A stretch of DNA of 62,882 nt, the filler included. It is 8 parts of 8 records of this genome, joined end to end, with 100 filler letters (N's around TTAATTAATTAA, not from the genome) between each part and the next. Parts side by side here need not be neighbours in the genome. Positions count along the whole stretch, not along the records: positions 54,945 to 62,882 come from DRR723986_11670; 7 more parts are not named here. The stretch is one strand, 5' to 3'. Of the stretch, positions 16,990-62,882 are shown piece by piece (the first letter of the stretch is position 1; every line of letters begins with the position of its first letter). Under the pieces are notes generated by a model. That model had not been told where the DNA came from and ran no database searches. It saw only the letters and a list, made by a program, of their open reading frames with translations. Position numbers and translations under genes: made by a program.

Positions 16990-17089
16990 NNNNNNNNNNN
17001 NNNNNNNNNNNNNNNNNNNNNNNNNNNNNNNNNTTAATTAATTAANNNNNNNNNNNNNNNNNNNNNNNNNNNNNNNNNNNNNNNNNNNN
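16990..17089. other. Artificial contig linker 2
   Basis: N44-TTAATTAATTAA-N44. Confidence 0.99.
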
Positions 17090-17121
17090 ACACGCACACG
17101 CACACGCACACGCACGAACAG
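17090..17121 (+). repeat. (CACACG)n microsatellite ending in a probable 3' splice acceptor (ACAG)
   Basis: acacgcacacgcacacgcacacgcacgaacag directly precedes the coding-like sequence. Confidence 0.6.
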
Positions 17122-20100
17122 CCAAGCACTTGTACATGGGAGCATCGATGCAGTCGCCGTCGTCGCTGGTGAGCGTGGGCGGCGGGTTGCTGGTGGACGA
17201 CGTGCGCGTGTGGGCGCTCGTGCTGTCGGAGCTGGACGTGCTGAACACCATGTACCCGAGCCCCACGCACACGGAGTGGCTGGTGCACAGCTTCGGGTTC
17301 AACGACCTGACGGTGGAGCGGACGGTCGCGAACACGGCACCGTCGTCGTCGACCTCCTCCACCACGCTGGTGCGGGCGTCGCTGGTGCGGGCGTCGACGG
17401 TGGAGTACGGGCGCAACAACGTGCGGTCGCTGACGCGCGCGTTCCAGCAGGGCTCGCGCGACCCCTACCGCGGCTGCTTCCCGGTGTCGGCGATCGCGAC
17501 GGGCGCGGTCGAGGTGGTGGAGACGGCGACGGCGTCGGTGGAGGAGTGCCGCCTGCACTGCCGCGACGCCAACGTGGCCGTGGCGTACGTGGCGGGCACC
17601 GAGTGCGGGTGCCTGGAGGCCGCGCCGTCGGCGTCGCTGGCGCAGTTCGGCTGCTCGGCGCTGGGGTGCGGCACGGGAATGGAGTGCGGCAACGCGGCGC
17701 TGGGGCTCGCGTCGGTGTTCGACAGCTTCTTGGTGCTGTCGGCGCTGCCGGACCGCGGCACGTCGATGCAGTGGCGCGCGTCCACGGAGACCACGGGCGG
17801 CAGCTCCACGGCGGCGGTGGTGATCCAGCCGCACGGCACGTCGCCCACGCGCCAGCGCGTGCCCATGCTGGCGCTGGAGGGCGAGGCGCTGGCGTGGAAC
17901 ACGGTGCCCAGCGTGCAGCTCACCGAGAGCGACTCGCACGAGACGGTGGAGGTGCAGGCGTGGTGGGCGTCGGGGGCGAGCGTTCCCAGCAGCGTGGCGG
18001 GCGAGAACGCGTGGCGCGTGCACTGGGCGATGGTGGACCCGCTGACCACGTACCTGGGGCAGACGCTCGTGCTGGGCGCCACCGAGCGCAACGCCACGGG
18101 GTGGGCAACCACCGCCAGCGCCAGCGCCGCCGCCGCGGGCTACGTGTCGGTCACCATCGACGCCTCGGCGCAGGTCGCGGCGGCGCTGGAGGGGGGCGGC
18201 GCGCTGTCGGGCACGGGGCTGCTGTACTTTGCGTGGGTGGTGGGCGCGGACGCGGGCACGGCGCCCAAGGCCAAGGGCCTGCTGGGCAGCGGCGTGGTGC
18301 TGTCCCCCTCGTCGTCGTCGTCGTCGTCGGGCAGCGGGCAGTTCACGGTGCAGGTGCGCCCCGGCGACGCGGACCGCGCGCTGGCGGCCGACGAGGCCGA
18401 GGCGGCGCAGTGGCACGTGCGGTGGTTCGCGGTAGACGGCGAGGCGGCGGACCCGCAGGAGGTGCCGCGCGGGCTGAGCGGCGGGTCGCTGTGGCGGCAG
18501 TCGGCCACGCAGCCCGGCCTGTTCTTCCTCCGCGTCGACCTGGCGGCGTACGACCTGAGCGAGGCGCCCGTGTGCACCGTGTGCCTGCAGGTCAGCGCGC
18601 CGTCGTGGGCGACGGACGACCAGGCCGCCGCGCTGGAGGCCAACGTGGCGTGGCCCGTGGTGCGGCGCGTGTCGCGCTCCGGGTTCACCGTGCTGGTGCG
18701 GTCGCACGCGGACCCGCCGCCGTCGCTGGACGACATCAAGCACGACGGCGCGTGGCAGGTGGCGTGGATCGCGCTGCCGCAGGGGCCCGTGGGGGACGAG
18801 CTGCGCACCATCAGCGACGGGCCCACGGCGGCGGCGGCGTTCTCGCGGCTGCGGCCGTGGTCGGCGTACGACATTCGCGTGCGCGCGGGGCAGGACAACC
18901 TGGACTACCCCAGCAGCCGCGGCATGCAGGTCAGCGAGGCGTCGCCCTTGTTCCGCGTGGCCACCACGGCGGTGCCGCCGGCCGACTACTTGCGGCTGCC
19001 CGGCTTCCACGCGAGCGAGGTGTCCGGGTCGGCGGTCAAGCTGGCGTGGAACTCCACCGCGCTGTTCGACTACCCCACGGTCACGCGCGTCAAGGTGCAG
19101 GTGCGGCAGGGCAGCGCCGAGTTCGCCGACACGCGGCGCGGCGAGCACGTCAAGGTGACCACGGGCACGGCGTACTACGTGGTGGAGAGCGACGACCTGG
19201 CGGGCGCGGGCAACCTGGTGGAGTTCCGCGCGGTGCTGGGCAACGCCGCGGGGTGGCAGGGCACGGGCACCACGCTCAAGGTGCTGCCCACGGACGACGC
19301 GCCCGAGGGCGCCCTCGACGTGCTCCTGCTCACGCACGTCACCACCACCACGGCCACCATCCTGTTCGACAAGCACTCGGCCGACGCGTTCCACGTGCAG
19401 CTCAGCACGGACTGCGCCGCGTACGCCGACGCGGCCAGCTACTCGTGCCAGGCCACGCGCTTCTCGGACTCGGACTGCAGGATGGACCAGACCACCGAGC
19501 GCTTCGCCGCCCACACGTTCACGGGGCTCGCCGCGGCGCAGACGTACTGCGCGCGCGTGTACGCGGGCAACGACGGCGGCACGCAGAGCCCCGAGGACGG
19601 CACGGTGCTCGAGTTCACCACGGTGGCCAGCGTGGACTCGGCGTACCTCACGTCGGGCGTCGAGTTCCGCATGTGCTTCGACGGCCTGAGCGACGCGGGC
19701 GACGTCGCGCCCGACATGGTGGTGGCGTGCCGCCACCTCACGGCCGACTGGCCCGCGCGCGACGAGTGGGCGTGCCGCGAGATCGACCCGTTCGTCAACC
19801 AGACGCTCGTGTCGGCCCTCGCCGAGGCGCGCGCCAGCACCTACTCGGACGACGGCAAGGTCAACGTCTGGGGCGAGTCGCTCAGCTTCAACCCCTCCAC
19901 GCTGCAGTTCACCAGCACGCAGGCGGGCCTGACGGCCGACTACTGCAGCGAGCACGTCAAGCCCACGGGCCAGCCCACCGTGCTGCTGGTCGACACGTCG
20001 CCCACGAGCGTGACGCTGCGCTTCGCCATGCCGGGCGCGACGCGCTTCAAGGTGCAGGCGCTGACGGCCCGCCCCTCGGCGAGCGGCGCCGCGTCGCGCA

Positions 20101-23064
20101 CGCGGCTGGTGTGGACCGACGTCGCCGCCGACATCGTGGCGTCCGAGTACACGGTGGACGGCCTGGCCCCCTTCCAGCGCTACACCTTGCGCGTCGTGGG
20201 CGGCAACCCCTCGGCGTACCAGGACAGCTTCCGCGGCGCCAACGTCACCGTGGGCACCACCGACGCCGCCCCTGGCGCCTCCGACCAAGGCGACGACGAC
20301 GACGACGGGCTGGTCACCAACGTGCGCTTCACCGCGCTCTCCGACGCCCCCTTGGCCACCGTGGCGTGGGACGCGGGCCCCACGCACACGCGCTTCCGCG
20401 TGCAGGTGCGGCTGGGCCCCAACGGCAACGGCGACCACGGCGACGGCGGCGGGTTCGACGACGCCGCGTTCGCCACGGTGGCCAGCGACCTGGAGGCCAC
20501 GACGTTCACGCTCACGGGCGACCACATCACGGCCGGCGTGGAGTGGGACGTGCGCGTCGTGGCGGGCAACTCGTACGGCTACGCGTCGGGCGGGAGGGTG
20601 GTGCAGGTGGTGGCGTCCTCGGGCGCGCCCGAGGCCGAGTCGCGCCCGCGCGACGAGCCGTACCACCGCGCCGTGGCCGTGACGCGCCTGGACGTGCGCT
20701 CGTCGTACGGCGCGCACGCCGTGGACGCGTTCCGCACCGCCGTGGACGCGACGCTGTCCGCCGCCCGGACGTCGGCCACCGTGGTCTCGGACAGCCGCGC
20801 GCTGGTGGAGCTCGAGTTCTCGCTGCCGGGCGCCACGCAGTTCGACCTGTACTACTGGCAGCCGTCGTCCAGCTCGTGGCTGGCCGTGCTGTCCGACGTG
20901 CCGCACACGCGCTACGCGCTGACGTGCCTGGACCCCGAGGACGACTGCGCCACGGCGATCCCGCAGCCCGCCTACAACGAGCGTGCGCTGCGCTTCAAGG
21001 TGGTCGGCAAGAACGGCGCGTCGCTGGAGCAGCCCGCGCCGCACCAGGAGGTGGAGGTGGCCTTTGACGTGTGCGCGTGGCGGTCGGTGATGCGGCGCGC
21101 GTCGGTGCACGAGACGGACGCCGCGTGGGCCACGCGCATCATGAGCGCCGCGAGGTGCCGGGACACGAGCGCCACGGACTCGGCCGCCTTCGAGCCGCAC
21201 CTGGCGGGCCTGCGGTCGCTCTCGCTCGCCGACGCCGACGCCCTGTGCGCCGAGTTCTGCACGCTGCACCCCGACGACTCGGCCGTCGTGCCGTGGGGCA
21301 ACGACGCCGCGGGGCGGTCGCACATGTGCGCCTGCGACGCCGCGCTGCTGTCGGACGCGCCGGCCAGCTTCGCGGGCGCCCTGGACGCCGTGGCCACCGG
21401 CGCCGTGTACTTTGCGCCCGACGAGGCCGAGCACCCGCGCACGTTCGTGCTGACGGCCGCCAACAAGTCCGCCGAGCACCCCTTGCTCGGCTTTGGCCAC
21501 GACCAGGCCCTGCGCGTCAACGGCGAGGAGGCCGCCGAGCTGCTCCTGTGGCACGGCACGACGTACGCGTTCGTGCTGAGCGACGACGGCGAGGTGCCCA
21601 TCGCCACGGCGTGCCCGGGCGGCGTGTTCCTGACCACGTCCGCGGTCGGCGGCGCCGGGGACGGCGAGGTGCTGGCGGACGGTGTGGACGTTGGGGCGGA
21701 CGGTGTGGACGGTGGGGCGGACGGTGGCGGCGTCCCCACGCGCCTCACGGCAGGCAACTTCACGCTGACGCCCACCAACTCGACGCCGTCGACGCTGTTC
21801 TACCAGTGCGCGGACCGCGAGCACATGGGCTGGCGCGTGCGCGTCTCGGCGCCCGGGCCCGCGCCCGCGGAGGAGGACTCGGTGCGGGACCTGCGCGTGG
21901 CCAACACCACAGAGTCCACGGTGACCCTGTCGTGGACGGCCGCCGCGCGCCACACGCGCTTCCGCGTGCAGTACCGCGAGGTGCCGACGCTGCGGGCCGC
22001 CGACGACGGCCTGCGCTTCCACGCCGCGACGGGGCAAGCCTTCGTGGACTTCTCCGGCGACGCCGTGGACATCGTGCGCGCGTCCGACACGCGCGACGGC
22101 CCGCCGGCGTTCCTGTTCAAGGCGCGCAACCTGGCCGAGGGCACCACGTACCAGTGGCGCGTGGTGGGCGGCAACTCGTTCCTCTACCCGCCGCAGGCGC
22201 TGGTGGACCAGTTCGGCAGCCGCGCGCTGGCCAACTCCACGGCGTTCGCCGTGCCCACGCGCTCCGCGCCGCGGGGGGCGCCGCGCGTGGAGGTGGACGC
22301 CGTCGGGCAGGACGCCGCCTCCTCGGCCACCGTCGAGTCGTTCGTGGTGTACCTGGGCAACGCGGACGGGTCGGAGCGCTCGGCGGCGCTGCAGACGCTG
22401 GCCACCACGGCGCCGGCGTCGGGCGACCTCGGCGATTTGGAGATCACGCTGCCCTCCACGTCGCTCGGGTCGTACACGCACGTGCTCGTGTACGCGGCCA
22501 ACGCCAACGGCGAGACGGGCCCCGCGAGCGCGCTGGTGGTGGACAGCACGGGGACGGCGCCGGCCAGCGCGCCCGCGGCGGTGTCGTTCGTCGACGTCGA
22601 CCCGCGGTCCGGGTACGTGCACGGCACGGTGACCATCACGCCGCCCGCCGACGAGACCGACGTGCAGTCGTACCTGGTGCGCTTCACCCTGAGCTCGTCG
22701 TCGCTGACCGACCCCACCAGCGAGTTCGAGGCCACCGTGGCCAAGGTCGCCAACAGCGGCGGCGCCACGCTGGAGCTGGCCGTCAGCGGCGTGGCCCTGG
22801 GCGCCAACACCCACGTCCACGTGTGGTCGCAGAACGACGACGGCGTCAGCGCGTCCGCGACGGGCGTGGAGGTGGTGGACCTGGTGCCGCGGCCCCTGCT
22901 GGCCCCGCGCGCCCTGAGCTTCGCCGACGACAACCCCGCCGCCGGCCTCGTCAACGGCACCGTCGTCGTCTACGCCCCGCTGGTGGACGGCAGCGACGCC
23001 GACGTGGACTCGTACGTGGTGTTCCTGGGCACCGCCTCCTCTTCCTCTTCCTCTTCCTCTTCCT
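17122..23064 (+). CDS. Partial giant extracellular multidomain protein (LamG-like tail, WSC, H-type-lectin-like, FN3 repeats, cupredoxin-like, Ig-like FxDxD repeats), probably eukaryotic
   Basis: ~1980 uninterrupted codons with extreme GC3. LYMG...VDDVRVW..VLS; YRGCF...C...C...ECGC...C...CG...SVF; FN3 signatures such as YTVDGLAPFQRYTLRVVGGN; FYQC...HMG. Truncated at both ends. Confidence 0.85.
23037..23064 (+). repeat. (TCTTCC)n microsatellite / poly-Ser at the contig end
   Basis: tcctcttcctcttcctcttcctcttcct. Confidence 0.8.
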
Positions 23065-23164
23065 NNNNNNNNNNNNNNNNNNNNNNNNNNNNNNNNNNNN
23101 NNNNNNNNTTAATTAATTAANNNNNNNNNNNNNNNNNNNNNNNNNNNNNNNNNNNNNNNNNNNN
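23065..23164. other. Artificial contig linker 3
   Basis: N44-TTAATTAATTAA-N44. Confidence 0.99.
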
Positions 23165-29622: not shown

Positions 29623-29722
29623 NNNNNNNNNNNNNNNNNNNNNNNNNNNNNNNNNNNNNNNNNNNNTTAATTAATTAANNNNNNNNNNNNNNNNNNNNNN
29701 NNNNNNNNNNNNNNNNNNNNNN
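29623..29722. other. Artificial contig linker 4
   Basis: N44-TTAATTAATTAA-N44. Confidence 0.99.
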
Positions 29723-42509: not shown

Positions 42510-42609
42510 NNNNNNNNNNNNNNNNNNNNNNNNNNNNNNNNNNNNNNNNNNNNTTAATTAATTAANNNNNNNNNNNNNNNNNNNNNNNNNNNNNNNNNNN
42601 NNNNNNNNN
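42510..42609. other. Artificial contig linker 5
   Basis: N44-TTAATTAATTAA-N44. Confidence 0.99.
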
Positions 42610-48614: not shown

Positions 48615-48714
48615 NNNNNNNNNNNNNNNNNNNNNNNNNNNNNNNNNNNNNNNNNNNNTTAATTAATTAANNNNNNNNNNNNNNNNNNNNNNNNNNNNNN
48701 NNNNNNNNNNNNNN
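48615..48714. other. Artificial contig linker 6
   Basis: N44-TTAATTAATTAA-N44. Confidence 0.99.
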
Positions 48715-49492: not shown

Positions 49493-50056
49493 ATGACGAG
49501 ACGCATTGAACAGTATACCGATTCGGAGCTTTACGGTCTTTTAGACCGTACCGAGCAGGTCCGGAGTGAAGCCATGGCTTTGCTCTATGATCGGCACGCG
49601 CCTATGCTGTATCGCTATTGCGCGCGCATGTTAAACAACAATGAAGCCGCCAGGGATGTGACGCACGAATGTTTCCTGCGTCTGCTGCGTGTGAGTACTG
49701 AAAAATCGCAGATTGAAAATGTAGCTGGATATCTGGTCCGCTCAGCTCGCAACTTATGCATCAATCTGCGCCGCGCTCCACGCTGGAATAGTGAAGAATT
49801 TGATGAGACCCGGCAGCCACGTGAAGACACCGTGGTGGAAGACCGCGAAATGCAGGAGTTGGTTGGAGCTGCGCTGGAGAAACTGCCGGCAGATTATCGC
49901 GAGGCCTTAGTTCTCCAGGTGTACGCGGGGATGGCCTACCAGGAGATAGCCGAAACGCTTGGTGTTAGTTTGCCCACAGTCCGAAACCGCATTGCGCGCG
50001 GAAAAATCAAATTGCGCACCTACCTCCAACCCTATTTTGCCGACGTCTTTGAATAA
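49493..50056 (+). CDS. ECF RNA polymerase sigma factor
   Basis: Region 2 ARDVTHECFLRL...YLVRSARNLCIN; region 4 LEKLPADYREALVL...YQEIAETLGVSLPTVRNRIARG. Confidence 0.93.
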   Translation: MTRRIEQYTDSELYGLLDRTEQVRSEAMALLYDRHAPMLYRYCARMLNNNEAARDVTHECFLRLLRVSTEKSQIENVAGYLVRSARNLCINLRRAPRWNSEEFDETRQPREDTVVEDREMQELVGAALEKLPADYREALVLQVYAGMAYQEIAETLGVSLPTVRNRIARGKIKLRTYLQPYFADVFE

Positions 50057-54844: not shown

Positions 54845-54944
54845 NNNNNNNNNNNNNNNNNNNNNNNNNNNNNNNNNNNNNNNNNNNNTTAATTAATTAA
54901 NNNNNNNNNNNNNNNNNNNNNNNNNNNNNNNNNNNNNNNNNNNN
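54845..54944. other. Artificial contig linker 7
   Basis: N44-TTAATTAATTAA-N44. Confidence 0.99.
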
Positions 54945-55070
54945 GAAGAAAGCTGAGGCCTACTTTCAAACAATCTTTTCTGATGATGGACCAATTCGTA
55001 ACAAACCAACGAATGACGCGAAATGCGAGAGGGATAGCCGCCCAAATTTCAGCGTAATTGGGGGGCTCCA

Positions 55071-55253
55071 ATGACAAAACGAAAGTCCCCACGGGAACTC
55101 GCCGCTAGAGCTCTGTGCAAACTGGATGGGAACACTCCAGATGCTACGATGGATGGGGAGCCGCTGTGGCAATCATATCTGCCGGAGGTTGATGCCACAT
55201 TGAAGGAGGCACTATCAGAGGAGGAGTGGCAGATGCTCAGGGATGACGGGTAA
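55071..55253 (+). CDS. Small hypothetical protein
   Basis: ELAARALC.LDG..PD....GEPLWQSYLPEVDA.L pattern familiar from alphaproteobacterial mobile elements; GGGGG RBS. Confidence 0.65.
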   Translation: MTKRKSPRELAARALCKLDGNTPDATMDGEPLWQSYLPEVDATLKEALSEEEWQMLRDDG

Positions 55254-55485
55254 GCCCCGCCTATGCCGGGACGAGGCTTAACCCTAGAGTGCGCACGTTG
55301 CGCACTTTCCCGCTTTATCAGGCAGGGATAGAACTACAATTGGATGAGAGCACCAAAAAGAATAACCCCACGTAAGTGTGAGGTTAATCTCCAACCACAT
55401 TTGATCGGGGTAGATAAAACGCGATGCTCCGAGCCTAGCTCACCAAAGTGCTGGATCAAGTCAACTATCCGTTATTATCTCAGGC

Positions 55486-55511
55486 AAAGAAAAACCCCGC
55501 CGTAGCGGGGT
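55486..55511 (-). terminator. Rho-independent terminator
   Basis: Minus strand ACCCCGC-TACG-GCGGGGT-TTTTCTTT. Confidence 0.8.
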
Positions 55512-55580
55512 GAGAAAGCGCCAGCCTCAGGAAAGGTTTTGAACCCGGCTGAGGTCGAGACACCAAATCAGTGGGTCGCG

Positions 55581-55751
55581 TCAATCGGCCTTTGCGGCTC
55601 CCTTGCTCGTGACAAGGGCGGTTATTAACACGCCAATTGGTCCAAGGATCACACCAAGCGCGATATGCAACTTTACGCTCAGGTCTTTGCGGGATGCGAG
55701 GCTTGCATTTATCAAGCCGCAGAGGACAGAAAGAATGATTATGATTGGCAT
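55581..55751 (-). CDS. 56-aa two-TM membrane protein (not in ORF track)
   Basis: Manual translation MPIIIILSVLCGLINASLASRKDLSVKLHIALGVILGPIGVLITALVTSKGAAKAD. Confidence 0.65.
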   Translation of the reverse strand: MPIIIILSVLCGLINASLASRKDLSVKLHIALGVILGPIGVLITALVTSKGAAKAD

Positions 55752-55948
55752 GAGGCTGAGATAAACACGAATCCAACTTATTCAAGCTCGCATCACCAGT
55801 GAAAGCAATTGTGCACGTATGGTTGGGAAGGGTGCCCCAGCAAGCATCTACGGGAGTGCCGCGCTGGTGCGAGCAGGCAACGGCTAGGTAGGGGACTCGC
55901 TGGGACAGTTCCGTTAATAGTCGATGTTAGGCGGACTTCAAAGGAGAC

Positions 55949-56122
55949 CTAAACGCTGGGTATGGCCTTTTTAACCTGCTGGTCGCCACACTCCACACAT
56001 TTCCATGTCTGAATTTTCACCCCAGCTTGAAAGTCCTGAAGGCCGGGCGGGTCTTCAGAACGGATCAGGCGGGATTTGGTCTCGCCGCAACTGGCACAAA
56101 CAATAAAATCAATCTCGGTCAT
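55949..56122 (-). CDS. 57-aa zinc-ribbon protein (not in ORF track)
   Basis: Manual translation MTEIDFIVCASCGETKSRLIRSEDPPGLQDFQAGVKIQTWKCVECGDQQVKKAIPSV, two CxxCG knuckles. Confidence 0.65.
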   Translation of the reverse strand: MTEIDFIVCASCGETKSRLIRSEDPPGLQDFQAGVKIQTWKCVECGDQQVKKAIPSV

Positions 56123-56274
56123 TTGAGATTTCTAGCGTCCGACTATCGAGTTGTCATCAACTTCAACCCTTACCACGGCAGTGAAATCAAACCCCATCTC
56201 AAATCTGACGACCCAAGACTTGCTTGGCCCTCAAGCGAAAGCGGCCCGGTTACCATTCGAAGTAACTTTTTGCG

Positions 56275-56613
56275 CTATGGGTAGAACTCACACCATGCCG
56301 TATAGATCCAGCCGTTAAAAATTGCTTCCCGTCCGTTTAGGGCCCCATTCTCGACATAACACCATTTGCCATCACATTTTCTAAGGTAGGCCGCGTCTCC
56401 GTTATGTAGTCTGCCAATCTGCCTGTACTTTGACCCCGGCCCAGCACGCAAAGCTAAGAAACCATCACCATTTGGATCAAGACCAGAGACCAAGCATCCA
56501 GTATCATATTCATAGGGCCCGCTGGGGACGAAGACACCGCCCGCAATTGCACTATTGGCTGAGGCGAGCGCCAAAAATAGTGCCAGTACTTTCAGGGTTA
56601 CTCGCTTCATCAT
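56275..56613 (-). CDS. Exported bacterial SH3-domain protein
   Basis: Signal peptide ..ANSAIA; VSGLDPNGDGFLALRAGPG..Y..IGRL.NG...W..V...GWI. Confidence 0.8.
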   Translation of the reverse strand: MMKRVTLKVLALFLALASANSAIAGGVFVPSGPYEYDTGCLVSGLDPNGDGFLALRAGPGSKYRQIGRLHNGDAAYLRKCDGKWCYVENGALNGREAIFNGWIYTAWCEFYP

Positions 56614-56707
56614 TAGACTTCCTTTTTGCTGAAGGGGTGATGGTAAACTTTTCTAGAGGCAGCATACTCATGTGAAAAAAACAGTTCCATGCTGCCTTAG
56701 TTGAGAT

Positions 56708-57016
56708 TCACCTATCAGTTCGCCGCCCACAAGTGTTGCAGAGCCAATGGCCAACACCAGAATCAAAATGCGCACTCTGACAAGTGCATATCGGCGCTCG
56801 ACCCTCAGTCTTGGTTGTTTCGCTAGTTTCCGCGATTGCGTCAAAAATCCCTGTGTCATTTACCATTTGGCGTATGACGCCCTCTAAAGCAGAAATCTCA
56901 GTCTCTGTTGGCTCCCTGTTGAAGAAGAAACCAACACCTCGACGGTCTAGGGGCTGTCGAAAGGTGAAATTAAGTCGGAGCTTCTGCTCGACATTCAGAT
57001 TGTGGACGTTTGGCAA
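56708..57016 (-). CDS. Hypothetical protein with C-terminal Cys/Zn motif
   Basis: CTC...WLCNTCG; TTG start. Confidence 0.55.
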   Translation of the reverse strand: MPNVHNLNVEQKLRLNFTFRQPLDRRGVGFFFNREPTETEISALEGVIRQMVNDTGIFDAIAETSETTKTEGRAPICTCQSAHFDSGVGHWLCNTCGRRTDR

Positions 57017-57258
57017 TTAGTGGTGTTCCCAAGGTTGGCAGGTGGATGCCGCGACGATGCGCGCAATTTCACAATCTGCCGATTCCGGAACATGAGCAAG
57101 CTAGTATTTGCTGGACTTTATCAACCACTTAAGCGCCCCTCGAAGGACCTGATACTTCCCTTTCGCCGGGGAGATTTTGTAACTAATTCCCACTGTTTCC
57201 AGCTTTGAAACAATCTACAACTTGTGCTAGAAGGTGCGCATTTTGGAGAAGCCATTTA

Positions 57259-57501
57259 ATGAGTGATTTCAAGCGAGAATGTCAGATCAAGATGCTCAAG
57301 GCTTGCGCCCAGTATTCCGAAACAGGGGTCTGGTCGGGTGAAATTTACTATCCCAACTGCGCTTGGGACATGGTCGAGATGGGGTTAGTAACCCCAAGTA
57401 AGGAAGTCACATTAGCAGGTCGGGTTGCATTGTTTCTGCTTGGCGAGGGCGAAGATCCATTAAGCCAATCTGCTAGCATATATGAGCTTGGGGGCGGCTG
57501 A
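57259..57501 (+). CDS. Hypothetical protein (possible winged-helix)
   Basis: GGAG RBS; MVEMGLV...EVTLAGR.AL wing-like motif. Confidence 0.55.
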   Translation: MSDFKRECQIKMLKACAQYSETGVWSGEIYYPNCAWDMVEMGLVTPSKEVTLAGRVALFLLGEGEDPLSQSASIYELGGG

Positions 57502-57562
57502 TTGACAGCTATCCAACAACTGATAGTTTTGAGAACGTAAGCTCTCTGACAATCTTAGACTG

Positions 57563-57596
57563 ACCCCACCCTGCATCGGTGGGGTTTTCTTTGTTT
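57563..57596 (+). terminator. Rho-independent terminator
   Basis: ACCCCACC-CTGCATC-GGTGGGGT-TTTCTTTGTTT. Confidence 0.75.
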
Positions 57597-57785
57597 CGCG
57601 GCGAAGAAACGGCAATACCGCTGCCCCAGTCTGGGGAGAGGGGTGGGCTGGTCCGATATGGCGCTTTGATTATTTTAATGAGCCGTACCCCTGAAAAGCA
57701 CATATGTGCGCGGTTTCCCAACACCCTTGCAGCTATCTTCCCCCGCGGGGCGACGGACACTCGTTAGGGACCGCATGTTATAGAG

Positions 57786-58310
57786 TCACTCGATTGCGCT
57801 CCAAAGGATCACTTCCTGTTCCTCTCGGTCGTTGGTGAAGAACGCTATGTCGGACTTACTGACCTTCTTCGATAGAACTGTGCACTGTTTTCTTTCAGCA
57901 AAGAACTCAGCAACAGGCTTGGAGAGTGTCCAAGAAATCCCGGCGGCATGGCCACCACGATAGACCATGACCCTTGCGGGGATATGTTCAGGAATCGTCT
58001 GGTCGACATACCTCAAGACATCGCGAATATCGGCTGTTCCGGCAGTGCGGAAAAAGTGTGTTTGAGTGATCGCCAAAGAAAAGACCTGTTCAACAGCCTC
58101 ACTCGGAAGCGCGAGATTGCGCACCATGTGCAGCGCCAGCGGCCATCTTTGGAAATCGTGCAGCCCGCAAGCCACAGAAAGCGCCGCCTCTACATCGCCT
58201 TTGTAGAATAGAGCTATATCATCAGCTTGAATGTGGGGTGGCATAGTCGGCGGAAGACCCTGTGACACCCTCACCCGTTCCTCAGTTAAATTTAGCGGCA
58301 CATGGGTCAT
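57786..58310 (-). CDS. Putative ADP-ribosyltransferase (R-S-E clade) with N-terminal helical domain
   Basis: VMVYRG (Arg), GISWTLS..VAEFFA (S-x-T plus helix), DREEQEVIL (ExE) in canonical order. Confidence 0.7.
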   Translation of the reverse strand: MTHVPLNLTEERVRVSQGLPPTMPPHIQADDIALFYKGDVEAALSVACGLHDFQRWPLALHMVRNLALPSEAVEQVFSLAITQTHFFRTAGTADIRDVLRYVDQTIPEHIPARVMVYRGGHAAGISWTLSKPVAEFFAERKQCTVLSKKVSKSDIAFFTNDREEQEVILWSAIE

Positions 58311-58585
58311 TTAGCAATCGCATCATCATCTTTGTCGGGGTCAGAAAGGAGACGCGCCCCGGTTCCGGTGCCATTTGTAATCTGAACATTCTCAGCAGCG
58401 AAGGCTGCGACAATCTTTGCTTCGACTGATGCGCTGCACGTACCAGTTTTCTCAAAGCGGTGAACTGTGGAGAAGGCAACGCTGGCCTTGTCCGCAAGCT
58501 CGCGAATTGACCATTGCAGGATTGCACGAGCCGCACGGTTCGCTTGTGGGGTGAGTTTTGCCAATTTTTGAACTTTCTTCGCCAA
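58307..58585 (-). CDS. XRE-family helix-turn-helix regulator
   Basis: LTPQANRAARAILQWSIRELADKASVAFSTVHRFE; its stop overlaps the ART start (ATGA). Confidence 0.88.
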   Translation of the reverse strand: MAKKVQKLAKLTPQANRAARAILQWSIRELADKASVAFSTVHRFEKTGTCSASVEAKIVAAFAAENVQITNGTGTGARLLSDPDKDDDAIAK

Positions 58586-58592
58586 AATGAAT

Positions 58593-58639
58593 ACAAGTGT
58601 ATTGACTACACTTGTTGTTAATGACTATATGTGTAGTCA
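58593..58639. promoter_or_regulatory. Divergent promoter with two palindromic operators
   Basis: ACAAGTGTA-TTGAC-TACACTTGT (58593-58615) and TGACTA-N6-TAGTCA (58622-58639); TTGAC...CTATAT sigma70-like boxes embedded. Confidence 0.7.
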
Positions 58640-58670
58640 CATTAGTAAGCAATAGAAAGGAACCGCGCAA

Positions 58671-58994
58671 ATGACACAGACAGTCACATATGACCTCACC
58701 GCCATCATGCAAGACGCTTGGGCGCGGGTTCACAAGTCCAACGTCGCAAAGTTTGGCCTGCGCTTCATTCTGCGCAATGCCCTCCGCGCCGCTTGGGGTG
58801 AAGCAAAGCATCAAAGGGCAATGGCCCGCCTTCAGGTTCAAGCCGCCAAGGAAAACCCGGAAGTGCGCCGGATCAAAACGTCCATAGCGGAGATTGAAGG
58901 CAAGAACCGCTGGACGCAGCAGGACTATGCCCGCCGGGGTGTACTGCGGGCAGCACTTCGAGCCGCAGAAGAACACCAGACATCTGCCGCCTGA
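58671..58994 (+). CDS. Phage-type hypothetical protein
   Basis: YD..AIMQDAW...LRNALRAAWGEAK motif; AAAGGA RBS. Confidence 0.75.
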   Translation: MTQTVTYDLTAIMQDAWARVHKSNVAKFGLRFILRNALRAAWGEAKHQRAMARLQVQAAKENPEVRRIKTSIAEIEGKNRWTQQDYARRGVLRAALRAAEEHQTSAA

Positions 58995-59055
58995 CCAACA
59001 AAAATTCCAAGACGCCATCAGTTTTGACCTGATGGCCACACCAGAGGACGAACCA

Positions 59056-59751
59056 ATGCAAACCAGTGAACTCAACACAATCAACACCCGCCTTGGGGCA
59101 TTTGCTCAGGCGATGGGCGATACGCCGCCTGCCGCAATCATCGGCCCGCAGGGTGAGCCAACACTTGACCTGTTGGCCTACCGAGCAAAGCACGGCCTTA
59201 GCCTTGATTGGATCGTTCTGGGGGAAGGGCCGCAGTACCACACCCGCCCCACCGCAAAAGCCTCAGATTTGGCATATGACGCCACCTTTCTGCATGGCCT
59301 CCTGCAAGGGTTGGATCATCTGATTAACGACATGCCCACCGAAAACAGCTCAGTTTCAAACGCCACCATAGCCCTTTCACAGGAAGTTCTGACCAAGGCA
59401 GATGTGCTTTTGAGGGGCATTGAGACCCTTGCAGAGACCAAGAAAGGTGACGTTGATCCCCACGCCGGGTGGTTGCTCAATTGGAAAGATGCCCGCCACA
59501 AATGGGCGGCGGCAGCGGTAGGGAGAGATGAACAATGGGACGTTTCCGCCGCAGCTGAGGCCGAGGGCAAGGCGGACGCATTTGCCGAACTAATCTCGCA
59601 AACCTCTGCCAAGACCATTGAGGGAATACAGGCAAAGCTTGAATACTGGCTTGCCGATTATGGCAGCGCCATGGACCCGAAAGACCCCAGCTTGGCGCTG
59701 GTCCGTTCCGTATCAAATGAGTTGGCCAGCCTGAAAGGCGGTGCGCAATGA
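59056..59751 (+). CDS. Hypothetical protein, N-terminal HTH-like segment plus helical module
   Basis: HGLSLDWIVLGEGP resembles the end of CI-type HTH domains; GAGGA RBS. Confidence 0.7.
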   Translation: MQTSELNTINTRLGAFAQAMGDTPPAAIIGPQGEPTLDLLAYRAKHGLSLDWIVLGEGPQYHTRPTAKASDLAYDATFLHGLLQGLDHLINDMPTENSSVSNATIALSQEVLTKADVLLRGIETLAETKKGDVDPHAGWLLNWKDARHKWAAAAVGRDEQWDVSAAAEAEGKADAFAELISQTSAKTIEGIQAKLEYWLADYGSAMDPKDPSLALVRSVSNELASLKGGAQ

Positions 59752-60248
59752 GCATCGCGGCAGCAATCACTACGGCCTATCAAGCGGGTAGCGTCCTGCA
59801 AGTCTGCGCCCGTGCCTTGGAGAACGAACACCCGTTGCGCCCCGGGGACGACGATGCAACGGCAGAACTTGTTCGCCTTGCGGGTGACATGGTTGGGGAG
59901 GTGATCGACGGCTTGGAGACAATCGAACGCAACCCATGCCCAAACGGGGCTGCGGATTTATTCAGGCGCTGGCAGGAGAATAGAGCAGCGCAAAAGGCCA
60001 TTGCCGAAACGCTCAAGGGCGATGCGAACACCCCGCCCGAGTTGGAAATAATGGCAGCCGCTGAGGAAGTGCTTAGCCAAGAGATTGCGGCCTGTACCCC
60101 GGACAACGATACGGATGCAGCGGCCATACTGGAATGGTGCATTCAAGACAGCGGCGGCGCAATTCTGTGTGACCTATATCCGCAAGCACAACGCGCGGTG
60201 ATTGACTACCTGGCATCCAAGGGCGGGTCCCTCAGTTTGGTCGCATGA
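59748..60248 (+). CDS. Hypothetical helical protein, paralogous to the C-terminal part of the upstream gene
   Basis: ATGA overlap; shared AY.A...G(I/L)ET..., W...R, LE(Y/W)...D.G.A, LAS(L)KGG. Confidence 0.7.
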   Translation: MSIAAAITTAYQAGSVLQVCARALENEHPLRPGDDDATAELVRLAGDMVGEVIDGLETIERNPCPNGAADLFRRWQENRAAQKAIAETLKGDANTPPELEIMAAAEEVLSQEIAACTPDNDTDAAAILEWCIQDSGGAILCDLYPQAQRAVIDYLASKGGSLSLVA

Positions 60249-60303
60249 GGCTTGCAGGCACAAAAATGAACCAGAGCGGGGGCGCTATCGGAGAAATCAT
60301 TGA

Positions 60304-60810
60304 ATGAACTGCTATACCAATAATCGGAACTGGTCTGACCGGTTCCTCCCCGAAATCAAACAACTAATCGGCGGCTATCTCCTTGAGACTGCCGCCGATC
60401 CGTTTGACCATATGCAGGCTACGGATCTGATGATGCTGGATGCGCGGGATATGCGCGTTGCCGCCCGCGTCCGCCGCCCCGGCTATGCGCAACGCTATCC
60501 CCACCAGTTCACCATACGCTCAGCGGTCGCCTCAGGGGCGCAGACAGAGCTATCGAAAATAGTCAACGGAAATGGTGATTGGATGTTCTACGGGCATTCT
60601 AACGCCAGCCAGACGGGTCTGGATGCGTGGTGGCTGATAGACCTGCGGGCGTTTCGTGCAGCGCTCATCCGCCATCAGATGAACGGGTCCAACATCGTCA
60701 TGGGGGATCAGGTGAACGCCGATGGGACGCGGTTCAAGTGGTTTGATATGCGGTCTTTTCCGGCAGAGCCGAGGTTGGTGGTGGCGCAGGGCGACGCTTT
60801 CAAACTTTAA
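60304..60810 (+). CDS. Phage-associated protein, possible PD-(D/E)XK-like nuclease
   Basis: D...ATDL......VAARVR...FTIRS...GAQTELSKI..G.GDWMFYG; fold is inferred. Confidence 0.55.
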   Translation: MNCYTNNRNWSDRFLPEIKQLIGGYLLETAADPFDHMQATDLMMLDARDMRVAARVRRPGYAQRYPHQFTIRSAVASGAQTELSKIVNGNGDWMFYGHSNASQTGLDAWWLIDLRAFRAALIRHQMNGSNIVMGDQVNADGTRFKWFDMRSFPAEPRLVVAQGDAFKL

Positions 60811-60874
60811 CGTATAGGCTTGAACGCTGCTCTCAGCACAGCTAACCGTGGGTTGTAGCATTTGAGCAGATACA

Positions 60875-61996
60875 ATGAAATTGATTTCGAAACTGGAATT
60901 GAGCCGCAAGATTAGGCGGGCTCGGCGACGCCGAAAAGTGACGTTGAGAAGGAAGAAAGGCGGGAAATCGTCACCATATTCCGGCACTTCGCGGATGGGT
61001 ACCAAACCCAAGGTCATTCATTTTCGGTTCCCCAAATCAGTCTCGCTGACTGCGGACTACGAAGGCACTATGGAAATAATCAGTCAACTCAAACAGGAGG
61101 CTCTCACTGATTCGGGGGGAGACAGGTTATTCCGTATGGATTTTTCCAGAACGGAAGAAGTCTCTTTGGCGGCGGTATTGCTGTTATCTTCTGAGATAGA
61201 CCGAGCAATCAGCCTAAGTAAAGTCAGAGGTAAGAACCACTTTTTTGGCTTCAACATGAAGAACTGGAAAAAGGAAGTAACAGCGTATCTTGGAGACTTC
61301 GGGTTTCTCGACTTGCTCAAGAATTCTCAGATATTGAGGTGGAGTTCAGACGCGCTAACGGACGGGTTTGCCGTCGTAAAGATGATCGCTTGCGGTAAAT
61401 ACTCAAAAGAGAGCGTCGCAACCATAACCCGGGAGTTGTCAGTAACTGCAGAATTTTTCGATCAAAGCCCTTATATTTACGAAGGCCTAGTAGAGGCGAT
61501 GGGAAATGTAGTCGATCATGCTTATCCTACAGGCGGGGATCTGGAATTTGAGGCCATAGAAGGAGATTGGTGGTGGGCCGCCGCAACATACATGCATTGG
61601 GAAAAGGAAATTCGGGTTGTGGTATACGATCAAGGAGTCGGCATTCCCAACACGCTGCCCCAATCTGGGCTTTGGGAGCATGTGCTTGCTCAGTTGGCCA
61701 AACTTGGTCACAGTGCTTCCTCACTTGTTCAGCACGACGCTAGGATGATCGACGCGGCAATTGGTGCTTCCCGAACATCTCGCGACACCTCCCTTGGACG
61801 CGGAAAGGGACTTGCGGAGATTGCCGGGATCACGGCAGAAATTGGCGGCTCAACAGTAAGAGTATTGAGTGGTCTGGGTTGTGTACTATATAAGGAAGGG
61901 GAGGACCCGAAAATGAACACTCTTTCCAAGCACATTGGCGGCACTATGATCGAGTGGCGCGTACCAATAACCCGAGCCAGCGGCGAGCAAGTATGA
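60875..61996 (+). CDS. STAS-like + GHKL ATPase/Ser-kinase fusion protein with a very basic N-terminus
   Basis: MDFSRTEEVSLAAVLLL (STAS-like); N-box EAMGNVVDHAY; G1 YDQGVGIP; G2 GRGKGL; G3 GGTMIEW; no HisKA domain. Confidence 0.82.
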   Translation: MKLISKLELSRKIRRARRRRKVTLRRKKGGKSSPYSGTSRMGTKPKVIHFRFPKSVSLTADYEGTMEIISQLKQEALTDSGGDRLFRMDFSRTEEVSLAAVLLLSSEIDRAISLSKVRGKNHFFGFNMKNWKKEVTAYLGDFGFLDLLKNSQILRWSSDALTDGFAVVKMIACGKYSKESVATITRELSVTAEFFDQSPYIYEGLVEAMGNVVDHAYPTGGDLEFEAIEGDWWWAAATYMHWEKEIRVVVYDQGVGIPNTLPQSGLWEHVLAQLAKLGHSASSLVQHDARMIDAAIGASRTSRDTSLGRGKGLAEIAGITAEIGGSTVRVLSGLGCVLYKEGEDPKMNTLSKHIGGTMIEWRVPITRASGEQV

Positions 61997-62328
61997 TGCC
62001 TTTTTCAGTCAAGGTCGTTAGAGATTTTCACCCTTTGCCGGGTGGTCGATATGACGTGGACGGCGAAGGCAATGGTACGGCATTTCGTGAAAAATATCTT
62101 GTCCCCGCCCTCAAGAAAAATGAAGAAATCATCATCGATTTAGATGACGCTCCGGGATACCCGTCCTCGTTTCTTGAGGAGGCATTTGGCGGGCTGGTTC
62201 GTGAGAACTTTGACGCAGCATTACTTCGTAAACTACTGACGTTCAAATTCACGCAACCAGGCTTTGAACGTTATGTGCGACGTATTTGGGAACATGTAGA
62301 TAGAGCATCTCAAAAGCTAGCGCAGTGA
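61993..62328 (+). CDS. STAS-like (DUF4325-type) protein
   Basis: DFHPLPGGRY..DG..NG..FRE..L, IIIDLDD..GYPSSFLEEAFGGL; ATGA overlap with the kinase gene. Confidence 0.85.
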   Translation: MMPFSVKVVRDFHPLPGGRYDVDGEGNGTAFREKYLVPALKKNEEIIIDLDDAPGYPSSFLEEAFGGLVRENFDAALLRKLLTFKFTQPGFERYVRRIWEHVDRASQKLAQ

Positions 62329-62810
62329 CCTTGCTGGCCAATTTCTTCCAAACCGTTGTTGCTTCCGCTATCGGATTTGTCATCGCAAAAGTCGCGACGG
62401 CTTGGTTTGATGCGAATGTTTCTCATGCCAAGTTTCTCGAGGACGAGCGCAATGCAGATGTCCAAGAGCTAAGAGCCAGAGTTTCAGCTCTTAAAGATAC
62501 AGGCTTAAGTTATTGGATGTCAGACAGGGGCGACGAAGATAGTCAAATTGAAGCGCTAATTCTTTCCGAGATCAATGGTCTCGGCGTTCTAATAGGTAGT
62601 TTGTTCGGCAATGTAGCCGACTTGAACGATGCGTGCCAATTGGAACTGGATCGGCTTGACGACGCCCTGACTTATGGCGATTTCAGGTCAGAGCGCAGAA
62701 AGGCTGAAGAGCAGCGGGTGAGCGAAATCTATCTCACAACAGACGCACTACAATCGAAGGTGCGAAGTTGCCGTCGCAAACTGAAACCGAAATGGCTTTG
62801 GCAACTATGA
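62325..62810 (+). CDS. Hypothetical protein with an N-terminal TM helix and a helical soluble domain
   Basis: FFQTVVASAIGFVIAKVATAW TM; YW and LTYGDF motifs; GTGA overlap with the STAS gene. Confidence 0.75.
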   Translation: MTLLANFFQTVVASAIGFVIAKVATAWFDANVSHAKFLEDERNADVQELRARVSALKDTGLSYWMSDRGDEDSQIEALILSEINGLGVLIGSLFGNVADLNDACQLELDRLDDALTYGDFRSERRKAEEQRVSEIYLTTDALQSKVRSCRRKLKPKWLWQL

Positions 62811-62882
62811 AACAATCCGCTTCATAGTTTAGACGCCTTTCACTGTCTGCTCTGCAAACGCTGGCGACTCGCTACAACAAAA

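Follow-up and report, generated by a model that had tools for sequence, protein, structure and literature searches.

What does a phosphorylation switch built from a STAS-GHKL kinase and a STAS-like partner control when the third gene of the operon encodes a membrane protein? The question is raised by three consecutive genes at the end of one contig in the 62,882-nt stretch of DNA analyzed here (the window). The first-pass annotation of this DNA described gene 1 as a kinase-like protein with an Arg/Lys-rich N-terminal tail, a STAS-like domain and a full GHKL fold without HisKA, gene 2 as a stand-alone STAS-like protein with an SSF serine site, and gene 3 as a helical protein with one transmembrane segment. 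All three descriptions agree with the domain, fold and residue data presented below. It further proposed that the switch gates the membrane protein as a defence effector, and it is this proposal that we weigh here against its alternatives.

Organization and conservation of the three genes

The sequence confirms three overlapping genes, coupled, as had been claimed, by an ATGA overlap at positions 61993-61996 (genes 1 and 2) and a GTGA overlap at 62325-62328 (genes 2 and 3). The frame of gene 2 is also open from a GTG at 61954; the start at the ATG is supported because the homologous ORFs of three related loci (L003, L007 and L011) begin at the position equivalent to 61993. The order of the genes is kept in relatives: it is the same in 23 of the 26 related genome loci found with a 12-sequence alignment and in seven of eight viral contigs from IMG/VR. 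In the genome loci, the spacing between genes 2 and 3 is mostly from -8 to +18 nt. The trio also occurs in Marinobacter phage AS1, where it adjoins a Cro/CI-type gene and its members overlap by 4 bp. The features of the locus are collected in Table 1.

Table 1. Features of the three-gene locus and its contig (positions along the window)
Feature	Position	Strand	Description
Contig carrying the trio	54945..62882	.	One of eight concatenated contigs
Left edge of cargo	60788..60874	.	End of similarity to other metagenome contigs and fall in GC
Gene 1 (K)	60875-61996	+	373 aa; STAS-GHKL serine-kinase-like, relative of VapK/CapK
Arg/Lys-rich N-terminal helix of gene 1, residues 6-30	60890..60964	+	Helix 6-30 in the model
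STAS domain of gene 1, residues 44-153	61004..61333	+	Fold matches
GHKL (Bergerat-fold) kinase domain of gene 1, residues 163-368	61361..61978	+	Fold and profile matches
Gene 2 (S)	61993-62328	+	111 aa from ATG; DUF4325 STAS-like; likely kinase substrate and effector-binding partner
Ser58/Ser59 codons in GYPSSFLEEAFGGLVR motif of gene 2	62164..62169	+	Candidate phospho-acceptor site
Gene 3	62325-62810	+	161 aa, GTG start; membrane-anchored four-helix bundle, proposed effector
Hydrophobic N-terminal segment of gene 3, residues ~3-27	62331..62405	+	Kyte-Doolittle 1.89; presumed membrane anchor

A predicted serine kinase fused to a STAS domain

The AlphaFold2 model of the gene 1 product (pLDDT 86.3, pTM 0.83) was compared with known folds by VIA-align. 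The N-terminal domain matched the STAS domains of SULTR4;1 (Z 8.6) and SLC26A11 (8.6) as well as SpoIIAA (8.1) and RsbS (7.9), and the C-terminal domain matched SpoIIAB (Z 11.5), RsbW (11.5), the RsbW domain of Rv1364c (10.9), UsfX (10.3) and SiaB (9.5). RsbW was also the top-ranked match when the gene 1 profile was searched against PDB sequences (E = 6.9e-4); a Foldseek search of the model against PDB returned nothing at E <= 1e-3. Among Pfam families, HATPase_c was detected below threshold only, and HisKA gave no match at E <= 1.

An alignment of 70 family members shows that the ATP-binding motifs, the N-box and the G-box, are conserved. Residues E207, N211, H215, D252, G254, G310 and G312 do not vary, at least 90% of the sequences keep G256, and E107 and R110 of the STAS domain are invariant too. 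The model and the conserved residues strongly support the reading of gene 1 as an active-looking serine kinase of the SpoIIAB type fused to its own STAS domain. The family is large, with matches at E <= 1e-3 in 1544 clusters (50% identity), and residues 50-368 of gene 1 match phrog_3364, a family of unknown function, with E = 5.6e-42.

The first 40 residues of gene 1 contain 17 lysines and arginines and one acidic residue. Their net charge reaches +5 or more in 69 of the 70 family members, with a median of +13, and is zero or below in all six VapK-like proteins used for comparison (see below). Judged from these sequences, the basic tail is a feature specific to the gene 1 clade.

The STAS-like partner

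Gene 2 matches PF14213 (DUF4325) with E = 9.2e-15 and 54.5 bits, the cut-off being 23. This is the sole domain detected in the protein, and about 30 residues remain after it. Residues 5-70 are 55% identical to AS1_40 of Marinobacter phage AS1. Serine 59 of the SSF site is invariant (26/26 sequences), and position 58 is a serine or threonine in 24 of the 26. It is thus strongly supported that gene 2 is a STAS-like partner of gene 1 with an invariant serine, and the protein is likely to be the substrate of the kinase and the partner that binds the effector. A search of PDB sequences with the gene 2 profile gave chance matches alone (E = 0.16); VapS (9Z7O) and CapS (9Z71-73) were not returned, being either too diverged or absent from the PDB copy that was searched.

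The third gene

Gene 3 is modeled with a pLDDT of 93.2 as one long helix (residues 2-64) followed by a four-helix bundle that extends to residue 151. The highest Kyte-Doolittle value in a 19-residue frame falls at residues 3-21. In 13 of 23 aligned homologues, the N-terminal maximum likewise reaches 1.6 or more, and in the other 10 it is below 1.6 or the maximum lies elsewhere. The family is kept downstream of gene 2; W64 is invariant, and T116, G118 and R125 are nearly so.

Gene 3 had no match in Pfam, NCBIfam, PHROGs or PADLOC, no PIN domain was detected by Pfam at E <= 1, and no similarity to known toxins was found. The fold search was uninformative because it returned generic four-helix bundles only, the best with a Z of 12.8, within the noise range of helical proteins. 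Five proteins, all unnamed or "hypothetical", were retrieved by the profile of gene 3 in a word-index search, and in the phylum of the nearest genome (G001), the profile matched one of 401 genomes, at E = 1e-3 only. ESM Atlas results were clusters without names, apart from a lead to KilB (score 0.90, 136 shared features) that we regard as chance.

Comparison with VapKSC, CapK/CapS and other systems

The first-pass annotation knew of no functional characterization of this architecture, a statement overtaken by Chambers, Rani, Min, Villa and Corbett (EMBO J 2026, PMC13373217), who describe CapK/CapS and VapKSC. As set out there, the STAS-GHKL kinase of VapKSC phosphorylates a STAS antitoxin, whereupon a PIN toxin is freed; the S48E substitution releases VapC, and the system gives about 2-log protection against Bas42. 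CapK is described in the same source as activated by ssDNA in vitro and as sensing the ssDNA of DNA damage. The earlier idea of a phosphorylation switch that gates an effector therefore has, in VapKSC, an experimental precedent (PMC13373217). The word "transmembrane" is absent from the main text of that paper, and our literature search found no STAS-domain kinase anti-phage system with a transmembrane partner. In the literature searched, the name VapKSC appears in this paper and its preprint only, and what a jumbo-phage paper says on STAS and GHKL proved to be unrelated.

Six K proteins from operons that combine DUF4325 and PIN genes stood in for the published VapK. Compared by hhalign, the gene 1 family matches this VapK-like set with a probability of 98.4% (E = 8.1e-15, 237 columns), and gene 2 matches the corresponding VapS-like proteins with a probability of 94.6% (E = 7e-8), the conserved serine or threonine of the latter aligning with S58. 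The kinase and the STAS protein of VapKSC are thus profile-level homologues of genes 1 and 2. The third gene differs, being a VapC PIN nuclease in VapKSC and a membrane-anchored four-helix-bundle protein here. Exchange of gene 3 for PIN nucleases, which had been anticipated, is observed in related K-S operons, where PF01850 was found in four of five third genes tested. On this sequence comparison, genes 1 and 2 are relatives of the phage-defence switch published in 2026, and the third gene appears to be a new kind of partner for it.

The kinase itself also differs from VapK. Gene 1 is about 70 residues longer, and its basic N-terminal helix has no VapK-like counterpart. It has no aromatic residue opposite those of the VapK-like proteins in the aligned stretch, in which CapK W68 and VapK F54 are unmapped, and its trigger may therefore differ from ssDNA. 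CapK/CapS resembles genes 1 and 2 in that a STAS-GHKL kinase is paired with a substrate of the STAS type in which a serine is conserved. However, CapK has an N-terminal HTH, whereas residues 6-30 of gene 1 form a single basic helix and no Pfam HTH was found at E <= 1; CapS is a wHTH-bearing transcriptional repressor of a downstream immune operon, whereas no DNA-binding domain was detected in gene 2.

Genes 1 and 2 have the GHKL serine-kinase and STAS folds in common with SpoIIAB-SpoIIAA, RsbW-RsbV and UsfX-RsfB (Z 11.5 and about 8, respectively), and in SpoIIAB/SpoIIAA-type partners, as in gene 2, the second STAS helix begins with a serine. In contrast to partner switching of that type, the trio has neither a sigma factor nor a PP2C phosphatase, its kinase is fused to a STAS domain, and the partner belongs to DUF4325 and not to the canonical STAS family.

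A different kind of likeness is offered by prophage exclusion of the lambda RexAB type. As there, the AS1 trio lies on a temperate phage, beside immunity genes, and includes a membrane protein presumed to do the killing. The sensor of the trio is, however, a kinase-substrate pair, and the two are likened by general features, not by sequence or fold. The annotation table of Francisella phage KIRK (PMC7924643) lists a trio, Fhv_0046-0048, between the CI repressor and the integrase. Its members are a hypothetical protein of 293 aa with its best match in Marinobacter phage AS1, a DUF4325 protein of 112 aa and a TM protein of 125 aa, so that, as far as that table tells, gene order and the kind of third gene are as here. 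The KIRK kinase-like protein is short and, judged by the listed length, would have no long basic tail.

Boundaries and genomic context

The window consists of eight concatenated contigs joined by spacers of the form N44-TTAATTAATTAA-N44, and paired N44 runs around TTAATTAATTAA occur at seven places; the GC content of the pieces spans 0.39 to 0.76. Physical linkage to the trio ends at the spacer 54845-54944, genes past which belong to other contigs. An ECF sigma factor gene at 49493-50056 was considered as a target of the switch and ruled out because it is located on a different contig. The trio's own contig stops 72 nt past gene 3, and its content is otherwise small ORFans.

The left edge of the cargo lies at 60788-60874. 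Contigs from other metagenomes (runs X1, X2 and X4) align to positions 60304-60791 and then continue as four different, unlike sequences. The GC content is 0.57 upstream of this boundary and 0.47-0.50 within the operon. Gene by gene, it is 0.498, 0.470 and 0.488 for genes 1-3, as against 0.57-0.59 in four upstream genes, and GC3 is 0.42-0.52 as against 0.62-0.69; an operon richer in AT than the genes before it had been noted by eye. The nearest genome has nothing that matches 57000-62882. A promoter and terminator scan of the region gave no more signals than were obtained with shuffles. Among the contigs aligned from the sequencing runs, none extended over 60820-62882, and the one RNA-library contig spans the upstream gene only.

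The first-pass annotation had placed the operon in a phage-like region. On the contig itself (54945-62882), no hallmark phage gene was found, and the phage signal consists only of PHROG matches of unknown function and one sub-threshold Phage_Gp111 match. The two larger upstream proteins had no match by tblastn among 50,697 phage records, and ten other ORFs at 48.7-57.8 kb had none in PHROGs. Viral and prophage copies do occur among the relatives, and judged by such sequence matches, the phage link of the operon rests mainly on them. Viral copies adjoin integrases (L058 and L065) or are surrounded by genes for tail proteins, lysis or methylases. Of the 26 genome loci, 15 have markers of integrases, transposases, phages, restriction-modification or toxin-antitoxin systems within 5 kb; at three loci (L002, L015 and L020), the trio lies between housekeeping genes. 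Downstream of the trio, the genes of relatives vary from locus to locus and nothing is conserved. The trio is accessory, horizontally mobile cargo.

Enrichment of homologues in defence islands is weak: only three of the 26 genome loci have a restriction gene or a candidate defence gene within 5 kb (L013, L016 and L017); at two further loci, a DNA methyltransferase is the sole such gene. A search of PADLOC for an already named system found none: no model of PADLOC-DB v2.0.0 (2023), a library older than the 2026 paper, matched any of the three proteins at E <= 1.

What the switch may control

On balance, we favor the reading of the trio as a self-contained, mobile and phospho-gated switch of three proteins that is akin to CapK/CapS and VapKSC but has a membrane output, and that probably acts as a toxin-antitoxin module or in abortive infection or exclusion. 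The original proposal of a membrane defence effector is supported in part by the domain assignments and the VapKSC precedent, and is weakened by the sparse association with defence islands. The steps below are proposed because genes 1 and 2 are related to VapKSC, the switch of which is experimental. Unphosphorylated gene 2 protein would keep the gene 3 protein inactive. A cue of infection or DNA damage, probably a nucleic acid sensed through the STAS/GHKL groove, the Arg-rich tail or both, would switch on the gene 1 kinase, which would phosphorylate the SSF serine so that the gene 2 protein lets go of the gene 3 protein. The freed, membrane-anchored bundle protein may then damage or depolarize the membrane, leading to cell arrest or death. 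Carried by a prophage or island, such a module could, as its context suggests, provide abortive infection or superinfection exclusion.

A bolder version can be offered only tentatively, and we consider it rather less probable. It holds that the trio represents a new branch of phosphorylation-gated immune or toxin-antitoxin systems in which a hitherto unrecognized family of membrane four-helix-bundle toxins is held by STAS antitoxins, a kinase with a conserved Arg-rich tail reads invading nucleic acid and releases the toxin, and temperate phages of marine Rhodobacterales use the module for Rex-like exclusion.

If the favored reading is true, the ssDNA-sensing kinase/STAS switch of 2026 would be a general modular trigger, with a membrane effector added to the transcriptional output of CapS and the nuclease VapC. 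Gene 3 would found a new family of small membrane toxins, and gene 1 a new kinase clade whose arginine-rich tail may alter what the switch senses. Being large and found repeatedly in prophages of marine Alphaproteobacteria, the gene 1 family may shape phage-host dynamics at sea. The trio would also be a compact three-gene model in which to study partner release by a phosphorylated STAS domain.

Alternative explanations

The same biochemistry could serve addiction or a stress response, that is, stabilization of the element or a host reply to DNA damage. The trio is found on integrative elements, beside IS elements and in prophages, few known defence genes are near it (the three loci named above), and genes for Y-family polymerase or DnaE2, which belong to the DNA-damage response, neighbor five related loci (L004, L008, L009, L021 and L007). 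Exclusion genes, however, typically occupy places next to the repressor or the integrase of a temperate phage. The authors of VapKSC call the border between immune and stress pathways fuzzy in their Discussion, yet by their account this nearest characterized relative protects against phage (PMC13373217). We regard this explanation as unlikely, though the strongest of the alternatives.

Gene 3 might instead be a membrane anchor or sensor for the kinase-STAS pair and not a toxin, the output of the switch lying elsewhere. It has no toxin-like feature, and histidine kinases and chemoreceptors have four-helix-bundle sensor domains that look like its soluble part, albeit with generic Z values only. 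Against this, no further gene is conserved with the trio in the 26 genome and eight viral loci, and gene 2 has no wHTH output domain of the CapS kind; the operon therefore offers no other candidate output. An anchor or sensor role seems to us improbable.

Still more doubtful is a device of the phage life cycle, in which a DNA-damage-sensing kinase would control a holin- or antiholin-like membrane protein so as to time lysis or aid induction. Endolysin genes lie within 4 kb in two viral copies (L061 and L065), the AS1 trio stands beside the Cro/CI switch, and the related CapK senses DNA-damage ssDNA according to PMC13373217. But the position in prophages varies (integrase, head/tail junction, tail fibres, methylase), many copies have no phage genes nearby, and the trio is AT-rich cargo and not part of a conserved lysis cassette.

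Finally, classical partner switching, with its sigma factor at another place in the genome, is very improbable. Gene 1 does have anti-sigma factor kinases as its top fold matches. However, neither the trio's contig nor the 218 neighboring ORFs (100 aa or longer, no farther than 5 kb from the 26 related loci) yielded a sigma factor or a PP2C phosphatase, the ECF sigma gene of the window sits on another contig, the module moves horizontally, and the kinase has its own STAS domain, like CapK and VapK.

Organization of the operon and its contig

Eight contigs make up the window. Each of the seven spacers between them holds the linker TTAATTAATTAA flanked by a pair of N44 runs, and gene neighbourhoods are therefore not to be read across the spacers. 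The GC content of the pieces varies from 0.39 to 0.76, and the bin behind the window looks heterogeneous. The contig that carries the operon ends 72 nt beyond it, and the DNA to the left of position 54945, including an ECF sigma gene, is not linked to the operon.

Features of the window and of related loci discussed in the text
Feature	Record	Position	Strand	Description
Gene 1	Window	60875-61996	+	ORF, 373 aa
Gene 2	Window	61993-62328	+	ORF, 111 aa
Gene 3	Window	62325-62810	+	ORF, 161 aa, GTG start
Upstream ORF	Window	60304-60810		168 aa
Putative HTH ORF	Window	58307-58585	-	92 aa, XRE/Cro-type by eye
ECF sigma gene	Window	49493-50056		Unlinked to operon
Operon-bearing contig	Window	54945-62882		
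Spacers (N44-linker-N44)	Window	8459-8558, 16990-17089, 23065-23164, 29623-29722, 42510-42609, 48615-48714, 54845-54944		
Overlapping very long ORFs	Window	17034-23120		On the 75% GC contig
Kinase-STAS fusion	L034	514-1797		428 aa
Kinase, gene 2 homologue, third gene	L076	2868-4814		Third protein 202 aa
Decayed trio	L026	6544-8867		IS insertion
Decayed trio	L027	5825-6355		Lone gene 1 fragment
Y-family polymerase (IMS family)	L004	3625-4854		
Y-family polymerase (IMS family)	L008	3634-4953		
Y-family polymerase (IMS family)	L009	4299-5564		
Y-family polymerase (IMS family)	L021	8357-9679		
Y-family polymerase (IMS family)	L065 (viral)	3543-4865		
DnaE2-like polymerase	L007	8901-12371		

Genes 1 and 2 overlap by ATGA and genes 2 and 3 by GTGA. 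The GC content of the three genes is 0.47-0.50, compared with 0.57-0.59 in the four preceding genes, and the corresponding GC3 values are 0.42-0.52 and 0.62-0.69. The first-pass annotation, which had described three overlapping genes richer in AT than the DNA upstream, is borne out by these figures.

The 168-aa ORF upstream of the operon matched no family. Contigs that match it at 90-99% identity come from metagenomes of seawater (here a contig of an RNA library), of the plastisphere, of algae and of biofilm. Contigs of three public metagenome runs match 60304-60791 and then continue into four different, unlike sequences, with similarity ending at 60788-60791. This pattern fits a slot for variable cargo, beginning where GC drops. 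Further upstream, the putative HTH ORF, which had no Pfam match at E<=0.01, is divergent from small plus-strand ORFs that start from 58671 onward, a layout resembling an immunity region. The high-GC contig has very long ORFs, of 1928 aa and 1996 aa, that overlap one another in opposite orientation, and at least one of them is probably a high-GC artefact.

Genes 1 and 2 probably encode a GHKL kinase and its STAS-like partner

Pfam searches with gene 1 returned a sub-threshold HATPase_c match (E=0.0046) and no HisKA domain, and NCBIfam gave no match. PADLOC, suggested earlier as a way to see whether the operon had already been named, recognized neither gene 1 nor gene 3. Among PHROGs, gene 1 belongs to phrog_3364 (E=5.6e-42), a family of unknown function. 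An exhaustive phmmer search placed its relatives in 1544 clusters (50% identity) at E<=1e-3 and in 805 at E<=1e-10. In a 70-member alignment, the Bergerat-fold residues E207, N211, H215, D252, G254, G310, G312 and T357 are invariant, as are E107 and R110 of the N-terminal domain, and G256 is kept in at least 90% of these members.

The AlphaFold2 model of gene 1 (pLDDT 86.3, pTM 0.83) comprises a helix (6-30), an alpha/beta domain (44-153) and a GHKL domain (163-368). When the model was compared with 48,161 PDB representatives by VIA-align, the GHKL domain matched SpoIIAB and RsbW (Z 11.5 each), the RsbW domain of Rv1364c (Z 10.9), UsfX (Z 10.3) and, aligned from residue 128, SiaB (Z 9.5). The alpha/beta domain matched the STAS domains of SULTR4;1 and SLC26A11 (Z 8.6 each), SpoIIAA (Z 8.1) and RsbS (Z 7.9). 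Foldseek alone retrieved nothing at E<=1e-3, and RsbW was the best PDB sequence found with the family profile (E=6.9e-4). The basic tail is a feature of the clade: the first 40 residues carry a net charge of at least +5 in 69 of the 70 members (median +13). Since the arginine-rich helix is nearly devoid of a hydrophobic face, its sequence hints at nucleic acid, and not membrane, as its binding partner.

Gene 2 matches DUF4325 (PF14213), annotated as "STAS-like", with E=9.2e-15. Its motif GYPSSFLEEAFGGLVR is nearly fixed among 26 aligned sequences, with S59 invariant and position 58 occupied by S or T in 24. A second match of gene 2 is to the C-terminal portion of phrog_5816, a profile of 441 positions; this points to the existence of fused kinase-STAS forms. 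One natural fusion was found at L034, where a single protein is recognized by the kinase profile and, at residues 330-393, by DUF4325. DUF4325 was also seen in open frames of ~345-420 aa to which the gene 1 kinase profile gave no match (L036-L044, L046, L048-L057; mostly one genus), a different and apparently common architecture of this domain.

Relation to CapK/CapS and VapKSC

In the CapK/CapS system of Chambers et al. (EMBO J 2026, PMC13373217), ssDNA activates the kinase CapK (HTH-STAS-GHKL), which then phosphorylates CapS (STAS-wHTH) on a conserved serine and so takes it off DNA. The same paper describes VapKSC, in which the proposed substrate of VapK (STAS-GHKL) is VapS, a STAS protein whose C-terminal region is short. 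VapS inhibits the PIN toxin VapC by binding to it; both binding and antitoxin activity are lost in the phosphomimic S48E of VapS, and the operon confers about 2-log protection against phage Bas42 (PMC13373217).

In the one phylum searched, that of the nearest genome, PF14213 was present in 66 of 401 genomes. Operons composed of a ~290-aa protein gene, a DUF4325 gene and a 180-235-aa gene were found at six loci (L029-L033, L045). Their first proteins match the gene 1 HMM (E 1.8e-7 to 1.4e-10), and four of five third genes tested encode a PF01850 PIN domain, the very swap of gene 3 for PIN nucleases that had been put forward as a check. In profile-profile comparisons, the gene 1 family matched the VapK-like kinases of DUF4325+PIN operons with 98.4% probability (E=8.1e-15, 237 columns) and the gene 2 family matched their VapS-like partners with 94.6% (E=7e-8), the conserved S/T of the latter aligning opposite S58 of gene 2. 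That genes 1 and 2 form a kinase and substrate of the CapK/VapK type is very probable.

Of 20 additional loci with DUF4325, 14 have a kinase gene directly upstream of the DUF4325 gene; the third gene of these is PIN-like by eye in five, codes for a two-TM protein in one (L076), and is absent or unclear in eight. The L076 kinase is of the long, basic-tailed type (E=1.4e-46 to the gene 1 profile); after it and a gene 2 homologue comes a protein that has two strongly hydrophobic segments and does not match the gene 3 profile, a predicted second membrane-type third gene. Because the third gene varies in this way across DUF4325 loci, the kinase-substrate pair is modular, with the window trio as its putative membrane-effector branch.

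The domain reading of the first-pass annotation stood, carried by the fold matches, by conservation of the catalytic and acceptor residues and by homology to VapK-like and VapS-like proteins. Its statement that the architecture lacked functional characterization did not, as the kinase-substrate switch itself had been described (PMC13373217). What is new is the membrane-anchored third component, in place of the PIN toxin of VapKSC, and the clade of basic-tailed kinases. The word "transmembrane" does not occur in the main text of Chambers et al. (PMC13373217), and a full-text literature search found no paper joining STAS domain, anti-phage, kinase and transmembrane.

Gene 3 and the proposed mechanism

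Gene 3 matched no model in Pfam, NCBIfam, PHROGs or PADLOC. Its homologues are always located directly 3' of gene 2 and share a hydrophobic N-terminus, a TGGxF motif, a conserved Arg, a basic C-terminal tail and an invariant W64 within a YW motif. The model (pLDDT 93.2) consists of a single long helix (2-64) leading into a four-helix bundle that ends at 151; fold matches were generic four-helix bundles, uninformative on function. The Kyte-Doolittle value is 1.89 at residues 3-21, and since the N-terminal maximum is at least 1.6 in 13 of 23 aligned homologues, membrane anchoring is likely, yet marginal in some members.

We propose that the gene 2 protein would bind and silence the gene 3 protein, that the kinase would sense a nucleic-acid cue and phosphorylate the SSF serine of gene 2 (Ser58/Ser59), and that the gene 3 protein, once freed, would act on the membrane. 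We regard this complete chain as plausible and slightly favour it. Where gene 1 aligns with VapK-like proteins, none of its aromatic residues lines up with theirs, and the trigger may therefore differ from ssDNA.

Conservation and genomic context of the trio

A 12-sequence alignment recovered 26 genome loci, mostly in Rhodobacterales and other Alphaproteobacteria, with some in Gammaproteobacteria and one in Deferribacteraceae. The three ORFs are present in order at 23 of these, counting L015, which is cut by the contig start, L019, where gene 3 is short, and L025, whose TM protein is poorly alignable. Decay marks the remaining three: gene 3 is missing from L022; in L026 a truncated gene 1 and a 54-aa fragment of gene 2 are separated by an IS (rve integrase-core transposase); and at L027 only a gene 1 fragment is left, adjoining an IS66.

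Genes 1 and 2 were also found on eight IMG/VR viral contigs (12-46 kb), together with gene 3 on seven, the eighth contig ending inside gene 2. The two sets overlap, since viral contig L060 and genome locus L010 are the same record. On the viral contigs the trio lies beside an integrase (L058, L065), between a head protease and a tail terminator (L060), 3' of a methyltransferase (L062) or an endolysin (L061), near tail-fibre genes (L059, L063) or beside a regulator (L064). In Marinobacter phage AS1, the trio corresponds to AS1_41, AS1_40 and AS1_39, with 4-bp overlaps, one gene away from a Cro/CI-family gene. AS1_39 has no pairwise similarity to gene 3; it nonetheless aligns with the gene 3 family and contains the YW motif. 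Francisella phage KIRK shows the same pattern in its published annotation table (PMC7924643), where a hypothetical protein of 293 aa, a DUF4325 protein of 112 aa and a TM protein of 125 aa stand between CI and the integrase.

The trio is a tight, conserved operon in a mobile context, and, in agreement with the first reading of the window, the 218 ORFs (100 aa or longer) lying up to 5 kb from the 26 genome loci include neither a sigma factor nor a PP2C phosphatase. At 15 of these loci there are markers of mobility or conflict: integrase (L005, L014, L016, L021), transposase or IS (L007, L017, L026, L027), resolvase (L011), portal and head protease (L010), ParA/ParB (L004, L009), restriction-modification (L013, L016), ParE (L025) and, as the only marker, a Y-family polymerase (L008). 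When every one of the 26 genome loci and six of the viral loci were scanned with PADLOC, restriction genes or candidate defence genes were convincing only at L013 (type II R-M), L016 (type I REase and PDC-M06) and L017 (PDC-S42). L026 and L062 had DNA methyltransferases only, and the remaining PADLOC matches around the trio were generic housekeeping domains.

A Y-family DNA polymerase gene adjoins the trio at four of the 26 genome loci and on one viral contig, and a DnaE2-like polymerase gene lies near it at a fifth genome locus. These neighbours may be shared island cargo or may reflect a link to DNA-damage responses, and some of the polymerase-bearing loci may be one and the same element.
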